Assembly (NCBI GenBank): GCA_045616665.1
Contig: JAZLHE010000098.1
Location: 8,034-72,033, forward strand
Direction: 5' to 3'
Source: Bacteroidales bacterium
GTDB lineage: Bacteria; Bacteroidota; Bacteroidia; Bacteroidales; WCHB1-69
DNA length: 64,000 nt
Shown: positions 10,081 through 63,875 of the stretch, one piece after another
How the letters are laid out: each line of letters begins with the position of its first letter
How positions within the stretch are numbered: position 1 is the stretch's first letter
Notes under the pieces: model-generated
Seen by the model: only the letters and a program-made list of their open reading frames with translations
Databases searched by the model: none
What the model was told of the DNA's origin: nothing
Program-made: the position numbers and the translations under genes

Positions 10081-10220
10081 GTGATCAGTGATCCGTGAAC
10101 AGATTTATTTGCTTGTGCGAGTGTAAAGACGTATCTCTCCACGGCTCTACTGGCGAACTCTTAATTTCTTAATTATTATAATGTCTCCCCATCAGCTCAC
10201 CGATCACTGCTCACTGTTCA
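10081..10220. repeat. Inverted arrays of TGANCNG heptamers flanking a 90-bp core
   Basis: The left arm on plus strand is TGATCAG TGATCCG TGAACAG (10082..10102). The right arm read on the minus strand is TGAACAG TGAGCAG TGATCGG TGAGCTG (10220..10193) and starts directly after the TAG stop of the LOG-family gene. The arms can pair at 16 of 19 positions. Confidence 0.7.
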
Positions 10221-10811
10221 CTACTTTTTAATCTTATCCAACCAATGTCTGTCGTTAGAATTTTCGTAATGATCTAACTTGTAGAACAAATCGTCCAAAT
10301 CTCGAGCCACAATCAGCAAATCGTAATGGAATGGCCTCAGGAAACCGTCTTGACGAAAACGGTCGAGTTGAGCCACCAAGTGATCGTAGTAACCATCCGC
10401 ATTCAACAAGGCCACTGGTTTTTGATGCAAGCCCAACTGGGCATCTGTCATCATCTCGAAGAATTCATCCATAGTGCCATACGAACCGGGAAGTATTACA
10501 AAGCCATCGGCTTTTTCTTCAAGCATTTGTTTTCTTTCACTCATTGAATTGACTAAAATCAGATTTTCTCCCAGCGACATATCCAACACGGTTCCATTGG
10601 AAAAGAAATTTGGTGCAATACCTACCACACGACCTCCGTTGGCACGGGCAGCCTCTGATGCCGCCACCATTAAACCAATGGAAGCTCCGCCGTAATACAA
10701 CGTGAGATTTTTTTCCGCACATCGCTTTCCGAACTCGGCTGCCAACTCAACAAAAAAAGGATTATTTCCCTGCGAAGATCCGCAATACAATGCCAAAGAC
10801 GAATATTTCAT
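10221..10811 (-). CDS. LOG family protein (TIGR00730-type nucleotide 5'-monophosphate nucleosidase)
   Basis: 196 aa with the PGSYGTMDEFFE (PGGxGTxxE) motif and GGASIGLM. The start overlaps the pssA stop by 4 nt. Confidence 0.85.
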   Translation of the reverse strand: MKYSSLALYCGSSQGNNPFFVELAAEFGKRCAEKNLTLYYGGASIGLMVAASEAARANGGRVVGIAPNFFSNGTVLDMSLGENLILVNSMSERKQMLEEKADGFVILPGSYGTMDEFFEMMTDAQLGLHQKPVALLNADGYYDHLVAQLDRFRQDGFLRPFHYDLLIVARDLDDLFYKLDHYENSNDRHWLDKIKK

Positions 10812-11524
10812 AGCAATTGGATTTTACTTATGGCGAACATAGATACAGAAATAAGTATATATAATAATATAATGATAGGGAAGGCTCCCAGACGGAAAAT
10901 AACGAACAAAATTGCCGCCAATATCAGGAATATAAAACGAACTTGATTGCCTTTCCAGTGAAAATGTTTGAATTTCAATGAAAACATCGGCAACTCACTT
11001 ATCAAGAGTACGCAAAACACCAACACCAACGCCAAAACAATCCAGAAATTATTCACAAAGGTAAGATTGTCGGCGGAAAGTGGCAAAAAACCAAGAAACA
11101 AAGCGTTGGCTGGGGTAGGGAGGCCCAAAAATTCGGTGTGTTGCCGCTCATCGTGATTGAATTTTGCCAGACGATATGCCGAAAAGGCTGGAATCAAAAA
11201 CGCCAAAAATGGCAAAAAACGAACTACGGGATGGAGTTGGGCGGGCGGCAGATATTGCATACAGTTTTCTAACCATACATATATAATCATCGCAGGTGCG
11301 CCGCCAAAAGAAAACACATCTGCCAAGGAATCCAAATCTACACCCAATGGAGATTGAACTTTCAGCAAACGTGCTGTAAATCCGTCCAGAAAATCAAACA
11401 GTGCCGCCGCGATGATCATCAATGCGGCAAATTTAAGAAAGCCATAATGCAAGGACAAAACTATGGAAATGGCTCCACAGATAATGTTCATACAAGTAAT
11501 GCAATTAGGTATATGTTTCTTCAT
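10808..11524 (-). CDS. pssA: CDP-diacylglycerol--serine O-phosphatidyltransferase (CDP-alcohol phosphatidyltransferase family)
   Basis: 238-aa polytopic membrane protein with the motif DFLDGFTARLLKVQSPLGVDLDSLADVFSFG (DG..AR...G...D...D). Confidence 0.85.
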   Translation of the reverse strand: MKKHIPNCITCMNIICGAISIVLSLHYGFLKFAALMIIAAALFDFLDGFTARLLKVQSPLGVDLDSLADVFSFGGAPAMIIYVWLENCMQYLPPAQLHPVVRFLPFLAFLIPAFSAYRLAKFNHDERQHTEFLGLPTPANALFLGFLPLSADNLTFVNNFWIVLALVLVFCVLLISELPMFSLKFKHFHWKGNQVRFIFLILAAILFVIFRLGAFPIIILLYILISVSMFAISKIQLL

Positions 11525-12879
11525 CAGGATAATTTTTTCACGAACAATTGAGCATTTTCAAAACGTGTCACTTCTACCTGTTCGTCTTTTTCTATAAAGC
11601 CGATTTCCGAAGTGGCATCCAACATTTCCCCATCAATTTCAATTTTCCCGACCGGGCGAAGCAGGGTGGCGGCCACCGCGGTGCGTCCCACATATTGAGT
11701 CAGATTCATATCCTGAGCCACGTATCCCTTATCGGCATTCATTTGCGTTTTCAAAGCAAGCGAACCGTAACGGGTGTCTGCGCTAATGAGTTTTTTCCCA
11801 AGCCATAATGAAAGGATAAAACCGGCAAAGCAGGCGGCCAACACCAAGAACAAATACTTGACAAAAAGTCCGGGAGCTGCCATACTGAAATTAAATCCCA
11901 CATTAAAAATCATCGTCAAAACCAAAGATCCCACCATCAGTATAATCCCGGAAATTCCTGTGACGCCAAAGCCCGGGACAACGAAAATCTCCAACATCAG
12001 CAAGCCAAAACCGACAAGGAAAATAATAATTTCCCAATGGGCGGCCAAACCTTCCAAATAATGAGGCGCAAAATAGAGTAGTGCGGCAAGAATGGCCACC
12101 AGCAACGCAAAACCAATGCCCGGAGCCTGCATTTCAAAGTAGATGCCACCAATGATAAACATAATCAGAATGCCGCTCACGATAGGGTTTATCAAGAATG
12201 AAATGACTTTGTCAATCCAAGTAACTTTTTGATTTATAAACTGGTATGAGCCGATATTCATCTTGTGCATTACATCGTTTTTATCCCTGGCTTCCGCATT
12301 GCAAAAATGATGGCCGATGGCTTCGGATGTTGTAAATGTCAACACTTTTCCTTTGACCGAAATCCCCGGAATTTCAACATCTGGATCGACCATCGCTTGC
12401 GCAATGTCCGGATCACGACCGTTCATTTCTGCCGTGGAACGCATCAGCGAACGCATATATGACTGGTATTTGTCAGGCATAATTTCACCAGTTTGATTTA
12501 CCACGGAAGCGGCTCCAATCGAACTTCCTGGAGCCATATAAATGGAATCGCAAGCCAGGGAAATCAGAGCACCGGCTGATGCCGCATTTTTATTTATGAA
12601 AACAATGGTCGGAATTTTACATTCCAGCAATGCCGTACGCATTTTGTCTGCCGCATCCAATTCACCGCCAAAAGTATTTAATTCCATCAGAAGATAATCT
12701 GCATTTACTTCCTGTGCCTGACGAATGGCTTGCGTCAGTTTTCTTTCCGAAGGCTTGGAAATATTGTCGTCAATTTGAAAATAGAAAATTTTATTCATTT
12801 TCTGCTGCGCAAAAACACAACCCAACGATAAAGCCATCAACAAGGATATTAACGCAAATTTTCTAAAAATCACCTCCAT
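11524..12879 (-). CDS. NfeD-family membrane-bound ClpP-class serine protease
   Basis: 451 aa. Signal peptide, then a ClpP-like domain (NTFGGELDAADKM...NKNAASAGALISLACDSIYMAPGSSIGAA), a hydrophobic core and a C-terminal OB-like NfeD domain. Confidence 0.8.
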   Translation of the reverse strand: MEVIFRKFALISLLMALSLGCVFAQQKMNKIFYFQIDDNISKPSERKLTQAIRQAQEVNADYLLMELNTFGGELDAADKMRTALLECKIPTIVFINKNAASAGALISLACDSIYMAPGSSIGAASVVNQTGEIMPDKYQSYMRSLMRSTAEMNGRDPDIAQAMVDPDVEIPGISVKGKVLTFTTSEAIGHHFCNAEARDKNDVMHKMNIGSYQFINQKVTWIDKVISFLINPIVSGILIMFIIGGIYFEMQAPGIGFALLVAILAALLYFAPHYLEGLAAHWEIIIFLVGFGLLMLEIFVVPGFGVTGISGIILMVGSLVLTMIFNVGFNFSMAAPGLFVKYLFLVLAACFAGFILSLWLGKKLISADTRYGSLALKTQMNADKGYVAQDMNLTQYVGRTAVAATLLRPVGKIEIDGEMLDATSEIGFIEKDEQVEVTRFENAQLFVKKLS

Positions 12880-12938
12880 TTTCGGACAACATTTTATTCT
12901 TATAATTTATATTATGTTAAATAGGATTGTTGGCAACC

Positions 12939-62750: not shown

Positions 62751-62852
62751 CACCCCGCGCTTGCCTCTCGCCGCCCGCCGCGCGGGTTATATTAGCCGTA
62801 AGTGTCTTAAAAGCAATTCTAAACCCTAATCCCTACACCCTATACCCTAATT
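62751..62852 (-). repeat. Conserved 3'-flank element, copy 1 (period-7 TAGGGNN units plus GC-rich segment)
   Basis: Starts at the FISUMP stop codon. The minus strand reads TAA aat TAGGGTA TAGGGTG TAGGGAT TAGGGTT TAGAATT ..., then cggctaatataacccgcgcggcgggcgg...gcgcggggtg. About 90 of 102 positions are identical to copy 2 by hand alignment. Confidence 0.85.
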
Positions 62853-63656
62853 TTAGTCCCGAACACAACGGACACTTAACCCTTCGTGCTTAACGTAGTA
62901 GTTTCTGTTCACGTTGGCACTGTTGCTGTATAAGTAGCGGCCGAAGGCGCCGAGGCTAGCGCCCTGCGTAGCCGACCAAAAGCGCGCGCAGCCGCCGAAA
63001 GTGTTGTAGTTACCGTCGTAGAAGCCCGCAGGAACAGCAGAAAAGCCCGTGGCATTGTTGGCAGACGGGTTGTTGCCAGGGGTACAAGTGTTATCGTCGC
63101 TGATCCACCCTGTAGTAGAGGCCAACGCCTTGGCTATGTATGTGTTGTTGCCACCACACACGTACTGGCTCTGACTGCTCACATAGTCAGTCAGCTGCGT
63201 CCACTCCGCATCACTCGGCACGTGCCAGCCGTTTGGACAGATGCCCTGCACCCCGCTGGGATTACTGCCGGAAGAGGAAGAATTGTGCATCATCGCTGGC
63301 CAGTTGTACAGATAGCCGTATGTGCTCACATTGTCACTGTTATTATTGGGACAATAACGATAAGCGACATCATACGACCCAGTGCTTCCCATTGGTATCG
63401 TTGTGCCATCTGCGTACTTCGTCGTGCGTAGGTTTTCCGCCATCCACACCTGGTTGCCCAACTTCACCGCATCGTAGGTGTTGCCGTCAATGTCCGTCAC
63501 CGCATTTTTTATTATCTCGTCGCCGGAAGGTATTTCCACGTTCCCCTCAGAAGGGTTATCGCCACTCTGCGTCGTTACTTTTTCCTTCTTGCAGGAACCC
63601 ATTACCACTACGATGGCAAAGGCCATCGACATAATTGTAAACATTCTTCTTTTCAT
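62853..63656 (-). CDS. Lipoprotein with a Fibrobacter succinogenes major paralogous (FISUMP) domain
   Basis: Lipoprotein signal (...VVMGSC). VWMAENLRTTKYADGT, YGYLYNW, CPNGWHVPSDAEWTQL, GFSAVPAG, FWSAT and GLSVRCVRD are the classic FISUMP blocks. The gene is visibly GC-richer than its surroundings. Confidence 0.88.
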   Translation of the reverse strand: MKRRMFTIMSMAFAIVVVMGSCKKEKVTTQSGDNPSEGNVEIPSGDEIIKNAVTDIDGNTYDAVKLGNQVWMAENLRTTKYADGTTIPMGSTGSYDVAYRYCPNNNSDNVSTYGYLYNWPAMMHNSSSSGSNPSGVQGICPNGWHVPSDAEWTQLTDYVSSQSQYVCGGNNTYIAKALASTTGWISDDNTCTPGNNPSANNATGFSAVPAGFYDGNYNTFGGCARFWSATQGASLGAFGRYLYSNSANVNRNYYVKHEGLSVRCVRD

Positions 63657-63774
63657 AGTTCTTTATTTTTTTGATGATTCATTTTTAATACTATCACCCC
63701 CACTGACACCCGAACTTGTTTACAAGGAGATGAATTTTCATCCTACTCGCAACCTTCTCGCCTTCTCCTCGCAG

Positions 63775-63875
63775 CACCCCGCGCTTGCCTTTCACCGCCC
63801 GCTCCGCAGGATATATTAGCCGTAAGTGACCTAAAAGCAATTCTAAGCCCTAATCCCTACACCCTCAACCCTAAT
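63775..63875 (-). repeat. Conserved 3'-flank element, copy 2
   Basis: The minus strand after the stop of the partial FISUMP gene reads TAA at TAGGGTT GAGGGTG TAGGGAT TAGGGCT TAGAA..., followed by the same GC-rich segment as copy 1. Confidence 0.85.

Follow-up and report, generated by a model that had tools for sequence, protein, structure and literature searches.

The stretch of DNA analyzed here, hereafter the window, comprises 64,000 nucleotides (nt) of contig JAZLHE010000098.1 from the Bacteroidales assembly GCA_045616665.1. It carries tandem arrays of 7-nt units (heptamers) at four places, designated sites (a) to (d), each at the stop codon of a gene. Site (a) follows a LOG-family gene, site (b) separates a gene for a 256-amino-acid (256-aa) protein from glyA, the gene of serine hydroxymethyltransferase (SHMT), and sites (c) and (d) follow two FISUMP genes. 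The placement of heptamer arrays at stop codons is found throughout the lineage, and the stop triplets within the units are a by-product of other properties of the arrays. The source is an uncultured member of Bacteroidales from rumen or horse gut, and the GlyA protein of the window shares 95% identity with that of a Bacteroidales metagenome-assembled genome (MAG) from horse faeces and 85-94% identity with those of many rumen MAGs.

The window arrays were delimited with Tandem Repeats Finder (TRF) together with reading of the raw sequence. The arrays and the features around them are arranged as follows.

10046..10075, unstranded: intrinsic terminator hairpin, 13 pairs and then a T-run in the terminator scan, also present in the RNA fold
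10081..10102, plus strand: array a2 (TRF), GTGATCA GTGATCC GTGAACA, starting right behind the T-tract of the terminator
10103..10194, minus strand: interior between a1 and a2, 92 nt, matching only itself by BLAST
10195..10222, minus strand: array a1 (TRF period 7, 4.0 copies), reading AGTGAAC AGTGAGC AGTGATC GGTGAGC on the LOG sense strand
10221..10811, minus strand: LOG / lysine-decarboxylase-like gene (Pfam PF03641, E = 3e-34), whose stop adjoins a1
54474..55244, plus strand: gene of the 256-aa protein, ending ...GVYE TAA (list of open reading frames, translation)
55247..55429, plus strand: array b (TRF score 289, 26.1 copies), units AGATGAA / AGATGAG / AGTTGAA
55430..55503, plus strand: A-rich unique leader from array b to the glyA ATG (sequence)
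55504-56784, plus strand: SHMT gene glyA (profile match)
62700..62818, minus strand: 3' flank past array c, with a GC-rich hairpin at about 62740-62790 (CCCGCGC...GCGCGGG; alignment, BLAST, fold)
62819..62850, minus strand: array c (TRF), TAGGGTA TAGGGTG TAGGGAT TAGGGTT TAGAATT
62853..63656, minus strand: FISUMP gene 1 (Pfam PF09603, E = 4e-39)
63843..63874, minus strand: array d, a paralogous copy of c (TRF), TAGGGTT GAGGGTG TAGGGAT TAGGGCT TAGAATT
63876..64000, minus strand: 3' end of FISUMP gene 2 (translation ...GYSVRCLRD*), which leaves the window

TRF reports period-7 rows at 10081-10102, 10195-10222, 55247-55429, 62819-62850, and 63843-63874, with 3.1 to 26.1 copies. The sole further period-7 row in the window, at 33542-33556, has two copies and is intragenic. 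The four stop-codon arrays named in a preliminary description of the window are thus present with the sequences transcribed there, and TRF calls a repeat at every site.

At site (a), the LOG gene ends with TAG at 10223-10221 and the minus strand continues as TGAACAG TGAGCAG TGATCGG TGAGCTG. The edge of array a1 lies inside this stop codon, as the register AGTGAAC puts the last two TAG bases in the first unit. Array a2 is the reverse complement of a1 with at most one mismatch per unit. The canonical terminator of the site, at 10046-10075, is an element separate from the arrays and is common to the convergent genes 8200-10017 (plus strand) and LOG (minus strand). Both arrays thus border on functional elements, a1 on the stop codon and a2 on the terminator T-tract. 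A dispersed element of the miniature inverted-repeat transposable or repetitive extragenic palindromic type was considered for this site; by BLAST, the interior matches only itself in 1.54 Mb of related loci.

At site (b), the TAA at 55242-55244 is followed by the dinucleotide cg and then by 26 consecutive in-phase RAGWTGA units. The 27 units counted previously include a last one that is degenerate. The base C is absent from the array. The 256-aa protein has no Pfam match. The end of the array and the glyA ATG are 74 nt apart, and the leader between them lacks an exact TAnnTTTG, the Bacteroidetes -7 promoter box. Directly 5' of the ATG, at 55486-55504, lies a 19-base run that is almost all A and fits the A-rich, Shine-Dalgarno-free leaders of Bacteroidetes.

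Array c lies behind the stop TAA of FISUMP gene 1 (62855-62853), from which it is separated by AAT, and consists of five units. Array d follows the stop TAA at 63878-63876 and the dinucleotide AT, again with five units, of which four contain TAG. Both upstream open reading frames (ORFs) end in the FISUMP C-terminus SVRC(V/L)RD*, and the 103 nt 3' of the two stops are 89% identical, arrays included, by alignment and BLAST. About 75 nt beside array c are conserved 3' of FISUMP gene 2. Sites (c) and (d) are therefore paralogous copies of one flank, and the four places of the preliminary description, all present, amount to three independent cases. The conserved 3' flank of the tandem FISUMP paralogues extends past the arrays (62700-62818 and 63775-63842) and includes the GC-rich hairpin; it may be a terminator or an element of the duplicated unit.

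An Rfam scan of the window at the gathering threshold gave no match, and tRNA and tmRNA scans found none. Exact-protein look-ups of the 256-aa protein, the LOG protein, and GlyA in the assembly collection also returned no match.

Heptamer repeats across the lineage

The window was analyzed together with 80 GlyA loci from related genomes (L001-L080, 1.28 Mb), a main sample of 1.34 Mb. A second set consists of 16 metagenome loci fetched via the 256-aa protein; it spans the same glyA neighbourhood as the main sample and is not fully independent of it. BLAST comparisons were made against 1.54 Mb of related loci.

Period 7 accounts for 169 of 984 TRF rows in the main sample, more than any other period. 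Exact tandem repeats of at least three copies number 28 at period 7, versus 4, 3, 8, and 1 at periods 5, 6, 8, and 9, respectively. All but one of these 28 arrays are noncoding, though 90% of the DNA is coding. Exact two-copy 7-mers in intergenic regions number 85, compared with 13 in shuffled sequences. These counts show that 7-nt tandem duplications in this Bacteroidales group occur far above chance. Arrays are most dense in the window (0.92 per intergenic kb), less so in close relatives (0.63), and sparse in an intermediate group (0.17).

The units are highly diverse, with 62 types remaining among 84 arrays after normalization for strand and rotation. The tetranucleotide AATT is 3.2-fold enriched in array units. 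Single-linkage clustering into unit families was uninformative, as it returned one giant component. BLAST of the site (a) interior, the (c)/(d) flank, and the glyA leader found only the queries themselves, except for the paralogy of (c) and (d) and a match in L001. The latter is a 19-nt match between the site (a) array and another array.

Several arrays in the relatives resemble those of the window. In L001, the closest relative, positions 1742-1767 read AGTGAGC AGTGAAC AGTGAGC AGTGAAT, the unit of site (a), and this array supplies the TGA stop of an unrelated gene with a tRNA_SAD domain (AlaX-like). Telomere-like TTAGGGT or TAGGGNN heptamers occur at the ends of unrelated genes, namely at (c) and (d) in the window, at L023 20667-20692, and at L021 5112-5140. 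A tie between TTAGGGT arrays and FISUMP genes was ruled out, as the L023 unit follows a Zn_peptidase_2 gene. In more distant Bacteroidales, heptamer arrays reach 13-21 copies (L066 11134-11497, L072 13838-14053, L008 3404-3495), and long arrays of such loci at times place three different units consecutively in one spacer.

Repeats of other periods are found in the same sample. Exact two-copy 8-nt duplications in the intergenic regions of the window and L001-L080 number 42 versus 2.3 in shuffles, an 18-fold excess. In several relatives, A/C-rich, G-poor repeats of period 8 (aacaattc aacaaata aacaattc...) reach the glyA ATG. Examples lie at L004 9960-10000, L005 9940-10000, and L006 9960-10000, and these may be unstructured translation leaders. 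Terminator hairpins within the first ~80 nt 3' of glyA in L016, L019, L027, and L031 contain period-9 repeats of the GTCCTTAAG type and their complement, so that a tandem repeat again pairs with its inverted counterpart as a stem. L003 has a 650-nt spacer upstream of glyA (9349-10000) with a GC-rich, partly palindromic insert of ~300 nt that other relatives do not have; the insert may represent a structured RNA or be of mobile-element origin.

Placement at stop codons and stop-triplet content

The preliminary description suggested a genome-wide scan for enrichment of heptamer repeats at stop codons. A scan of this kind was carried out on the main sample, with a null model that inserts each array at a random point of the unique sequence within its intergenic region. 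Among 68 intergenic period-7 arrays, 22 overlap a stop codon or lie within 3 nt of one, versus 5.1 expected (z = 9.1), and 30 lie within 10 nt, versus 12.0 expected. The excess is also seen without the window (19 of 64 versus 5.0), with ORFs restricted to at least 150 aa (19 of 63 versus 4.1), and in the second set (11 of 31 versus 1.6). The window itself contributes three arrays within 3 nt of a stop, where random placement in their own intergenic regions predicts about 0.1. There is no excess of arrays at start codons (6 versus 4.6). Repeats of period 8 show a much weaker excess at stops (7 versus 3.4) and those of period 9 show none (0 versus 0.6). The positional half of the proposed rule is thus real and lineage-wide.

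The arrays are unevenly distributed among classes of intergenic region. Divergent regions make up 31.6 kb, or 25% of the intergenic length, and hold only three of 71 arrays (Poisson estimate about 2e-5). Convergent regions hold 13 arrays in 17.6 kb, and regions between tandem genes hold 55 in 76 kb. Tandem spacers with arrays are poor in promoter boxes: TAnnTTTG occurs in 23% of those of 100-200 nt, versus 57% of array-free spacers, and in 0% versus 25% of those of 40-100 nt.

A common repeat-generating mechanism acting at gene ends had been put forward as one explanation. Two parts of this proposal hold, namely the bias toward gene ends and a gain and loss of whole units that is described below. 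Birth of the repeats at stops does not appear to, as two-copy proto-repeats are only weakly enriched there (12 versus 7.5). The bias would therefore lie in retention or expansion, not in birth.

The second half of the proposed rule, a stop triplet in each unit that closes every reading frame behind the gene, fares differently. Closure was compared with a null in which the columns of the units are permuted, so that composition and periodicity are kept. The sense strand closes all three frames in 16 of 30 stop-adjacent arrays, versus 13.7 +/- 2.1 under permutation (P = 0.19). For the window arrays, the probability of closure by chance is 0.31 for (a), 0.93 for (b), and 0.37 for (c), or about 0.11 jointly. 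The triplet content is thus what base composition predicts, and a shared rule of this kind is not supported.

The proposal that arrays are selected as an all-frame translational barrier against read-through or frameshifted ribosomes is accordingly extremely unlikely. All four window arrays do close three frames on the sense strand, and stop density in stop-adjacent arrays is higher on the sense strand (0.105) than on the antisense strand (0.058). Arrays overlapping a stop are likewise enriched for closure (11 of 16 versus 7.5, P = 0.048). This last excess reflects ascertainment, because the overlapping arrays themselves supply the stop. Arrays located 1-10 nt past an intact stop close all frames in five of 14 cases, versus 6.1 expected. 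Some frame stays open in 14 of the 30 stop-adjacent arrays, and units such as ACAATGC, ACGGAGA, and GAGATGG contain few or no sense stops. The stop-triplet density of ordinary 3' flanks is already 0.065 per nt, one per about 15 nt, so a barrier array would add little. In addition, the 26 units of array b far exceed what a barrier needs.

The abundance of stop triplets is explained by the composition of the arrays. On the sense strand, stop-adjacent arrays contain A, C, G, and T at frequencies of 0.40, 0.087, 0.265, and 0.25, respectively, whereas the background flanks have 0.176 C and 0.168 G. Stop codons consist of a T followed by purines, and T-purine-purine triplets are therefore frequent in a sense strand that is rich in A, G, and T and poor in C. 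Arrays past intact stops are equally C-poor (C = 0.068) and are not enriched in stops, indicating that composition is primary. These data show that the stop triplets are a by-product of three things: the base composition, a period not divisible by three, and the definition of ORF ends. A step of 7 nt rotates any triplet through all frames, and an ORF that enters a C-poor array of this kind closes at once, so that the edge of the array becomes the end of the ORF.

Slippage, retention, and competing explanations

The spacer between the 256-aa gene and glyA illustrates how the arrays change. As in the window, a heptamer lattice begins at or within the stop codon in L002, L004, L005, and L084-L089, and its unit sequences differ by species. 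L004, L087, L088, and L089 share one lattice of about 20 units, in a single 7-nt register from the stop, and differ in the copy number of individual units. In this order, TGATCAG is present two, two, one, and four times, and TAGTTAA one, two, four, and three times; TCAYAAT varies from eight to ten copies among the four. This comparison shows gain and loss of whole units in place, the behaviour of a minisatellite, which is consistent with replication slippage. In L084 and L086, the TGA stop opens the first unit (TGATCAG and TGATTAG, respectively), so some stop triplets in units descend from the real stop codon. Nearly all orthologues seen, distant array-free ones included, retain the protein end (Y/F)(E/D)*, which implies that the arrays have neither shortened nor lengthened the 256-aa protein.

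Other relatives have a different array or none in this spacer. The spacer is only 50 nt long in L082 and L083 and contains repeat remnants only. L001 and L034, the relatives with the closest GlyA, are array-free here and have another gene upstream. In L081, a period-14 array at 903-1000 (TAACAAACACGAAG, about 6 copies) replaces the heptamers in the spacer to glyA. An assembly artefact at site (b) was rejected, given that its three unit variants are interspersed aperiodically and that relatives have lattices at the same place.

We consider it probable that the four sites are local cases of lineage-wide heptanucleotide simple-sequence repeats that are remodelled by slippage and retained behind stop codons. 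The arrays would survive only in the unconstrained, mostly promoter-free spacer just 3' of a stop, because 7-nt insertions or deletions would harm coding sequence, a promoter, or a leader. Deletions associated with slippage may then wear away the neutral flanks, leaving the array directly beside constrained sequence. The hard boundaries would be the stop codon on one side and a terminator or leader on the other, and erosion up to the stop-codon boundary would make arrays start at or overlap the stop.

A number of observations count against this explanation. Some concern the data themselves. The genes were called with a greedy longest-ORF heuristic (90% coding) and not with a gene finder. The position null takes every non-array intergenic base as a possible site, and the neutral slot and its erosion are things that we infer. 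The variation in copy number is seen among relatives and not within the population of the window itself. Others concern the pattern. Within 20 nt of a stop there are 34 arrays, and 22 of them sit within 3 nt. The spacer between stop and terminator in the 3' flanks of glyA is normally 10-40 nt long, and the clustering within 3 nt is therefore tighter than uniform seeding explains. Three further features, strand polarity, inverted pairing, and the recurrence of certain units, are considered below with the explanations that they favour. Clustering this tight, together with the polarity and the inverted pairing, leaves room for a function or a polar mechanism.

The polarity is not explained by neutrality. 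Among stop-adjacent arrays, 21 have more G than C on the sense strand and 8 have less (p = 0.024), and arrays farther from a stop reverse this polarity (11 versus 22). With respect to the G-rich strand of each array, the nearer ORF lies 5' in 42 cases and 3' in 23 (p = 0.025), at median distances of 13 nt on the 5' side and 78 nt on the 3' side. In the window, polarity tracks gene orientation and not one DNA strand, with (a), (c), and (d) on the minus strand and (b) on the plus strand. These observations would fit a polar process at gene ends that makes the arrays, in which, for example, RNA polymerase uncoupled from ribosomes leads to R-loops or collisions and then to 7-nt slippage on the G-rich non-template strand. 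The near absence of arrays between divergent genes and a comparable polarity in two other phyla (PMC4692102) would fit as well. The weak enrichment of proto-repeats near stops, by which birth does not look coupled to stops, speaks against such a process, and no mechanism predicts a step of exactly 7 nt. We regard it as quite improbable.

Inverted pairing is also more frequent than expected. Seven of 30 neighbouring array pairs, site (a) among them, are inverted copies of each other with at most one mismatch per unit, compared with about 3% of random pairs, and only one of the 30 is direct. In the RNA fold computed for site (a), a1 and a2 form the arms of a stem of ~25 bp around the 92-nt interior, with a folding energy of -60.3 kcal/mol, far below that of shuffled sequences (z = -5.75). 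This strong fold hints that pairing is under selection in some cases. Array b is less structured than its shuffles (z = +1.48), and the fold at site (c) is not significant (z = -1.25). Sites (c) and (d), and neither (a) nor (b), match a regular expression for a canonical putative G-quadruplex, with four G3 tracts and 4-nt loops. The terminator scan, which covered sites (a), (c), and (d), found no terminator-like site coinciding with arrays (c) and (d). Any structural roles would thus differ from site to site, as a long stem ahead of a terminator at (a), an unstructured spacer at (b), and a predicted G-quadruplex at (c) and (d).

These features raise the possibility that the arrays are functional structure or spacer elements of mRNA 3' ends and intercistronic regions, kept by selection after the stop. 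Paired arrays would act as long stems, GGG arrays as G-quadruplexes, and C-free arrays as spacers that resist Rho loading. The excess of inverted partners and the fold of site (a) are in line with this, as are the retention of four G3 tracts in both paralogues (c) and (d) and the C-poor sense strand. The spacers that bear arrays mostly lack promoter boxes, which suggests that the arrays are transcribed with the upstream gene, and most such repeats in Xanthomonas are transcribed (PMC4692102). The lattice behind the 256-aa gene is moreover kept in at least nine species-level relatives despite turnover of its units. A single RNA-structure role, on the other hand, was rejected on the opposite behaviour of the three window loci. 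The close relatives L082 and L083 do with a 50-nt spacer, the glyA loci of L001 and L034 are array-free there, and units turn over rapidly. Substitutions between (c) and (d) fall in the G-quadruplex loops to an extent that is not significant (our own estimate is about 0.24), and Rehm et al. found no regulatory role for their repeats (PMC4692102). Selection for such elements is possible, though we consider it unlikely.

The third feature is that units of the types AATTSAN, AGTGANC, and TTAGGGT turn up at unrelated loci. Together with the enrichment of AATT, these recurring families might mark binding arrays, which the preliminary description also offered as an explanation. The binder would be a protein in which each monomer recognises about 7 nt, for instance an OB-fold protein of the cold-shock or S1 type, or else Rho, with primary sites on C-bearing arrays. 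The strict 7-nt period, which persists while unit sequences vary, would be accounted for, and CspB is described as binding heptamer repeats with one protein per heptamer (reviewed in PMC4679880). The 62 different units share no common motif, copy numbers spread from 3 to 26, and there is no candidate protein to name, making this explanation highly improbable.

Relation to known heptamer repeats

The preliminary description was aware of no earlier account of such arrays. Most of the position rules are in fact contained in Rehm et al. 2015 (PLoS One), and closure of all frames in MacGregor 2015. Rehm et al. described the heptamers GGGAATC in Xanthomonas and GGGGAYT in Nostoc, which occur in 2-26 copies, are about 90% intergenic, and lie near or overlap a stop codon, the sense strand being the G-rich one (PMC4692102). 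These repeats are scarce between divergent ORFs, form many convergent (inverted) pairs, and vary in copy number, sequence, and length between close species; they show no tie to surface or virulence genes, and no function was identified (PMC4692102). Stop anchoring, the G-rich sense strand, scarcity between divergent genes, inverted pairs, and variation are all reproduced here, and sites (c) and (d) also contain a four-tract G-quadruplex motif. The two systems differ in several respects. The host is a member of Bacteroidales. The window units AGTGARC, AGATGAA, and TAGGGNN do not fit the consensus GGGNATC / GGGGAYT, and the 62 unit types among 84 arrays have no consensus at all. Most arrays, (a) and (b) included, are unable to form a G-quadruplex.

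MacGregor reported direct repeats of TAACTGA in marine Beggiatoaceae, cyanobacteria, and a few Bacteroidetes, among which Paludibacter, Gramella, and Aequorivita carry TAACTGA plus other heptamer repeats (PMC4679880). Forward repeats of this unit stop all three frames and hence are necessarily at ORF ends, and 13 sets overlap the upstream stop codon (PMC4679880). TAACTGA is one fixed unit, located mostly a few nt 5' of start codons, and a role in translational regulation was suggested (PMC4679880). The arrays described here differ in that their units vary and that they show no excess at start codons (6 versus 4.6). TAACTGA is not among the period-7 arrays found by TRF in the window; L005 carries four copies of a near-variant, AACTGAA. 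The literature search returned nothing on heptamer repeats in Bacteroidales beyond MacGregor 2015.

In a broader survey by Mrazek, Guo and Shah 2007, as summarised in later papers, heptanucleotides dominate the repeats with longer units and have an intergenic bias, and polymerase slippage with a contact of roughly 7 nt was proposed as their origin (PMC4679880, PMC4692102). The genomes ranked highest in these summaries are Burkholderia, cyanobacteria, actinobacteria, and Xanthomonas (PMC4679880, PMC4692102). The spike at period 7 is alike here, and the summaries report no anchoring at stop codons. The present arrays show the properties of this class of long simple-sequence repeats, namely at least three tandem copies, over-representation, noncoding bias, and whole-unit differences among relatives.

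Three tandem heptanucleotides are also cited for Calothrix PCC 7601 (PMC4692102). They are alike by class only, as tandem heptanucleotides dispersed in the noncoding DNA of one lineage, and differ in having few fixed units and heterocystous cyanobacteria as hosts. The Calothrix repeats were reportedly called STRR by Mazel et al. 1990. The repeats of contingency loci resemble the present arrays in that the copy number of short tandem units changes by slippage. Those repeats, however, switch the expression of surface or virulence genes from positions within an ORF or between its promoter elements, whereas the arrays of the window and its relatives are 3' of the stops of housekeeping and assorted genes, namely LOG, 256-aa-protein, FISUMP, Zn-peptidase, and AlaX-like genes. 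This location does not indicate phase variation.

The analysis extends a known repeat class to uncultured gut and rumen Bacteroidales, in which the position rules hold with hypervariable units that mostly do not form G-quadruplexes. Because these units mostly lack G-tracts, the G-quadruplex is not the general cause of stop anchoring and polarity, which narrows the search for what sets the 7-nt period and the position at stops. An apparent design feature, the stop triplet in each unit, is a side effect, which advises caution in reading function into it. Heptamer arrays mark ORF ends and can supply stop codons. Short-read assembly probably collapses them, and strain typing could make use of them. 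Similar position rules are now seen in three phyla, Bacteroidota from the present data and those of Xanthomonas and Nostoc from the literature. It is conceivable, though distinctly unlikely, that a general process at the end of translation or transcription makes or expands 7-nt repeats in a polar manner at gene ends, or that a 7-nt-periodic 3' untranslated tract has a conserved function.

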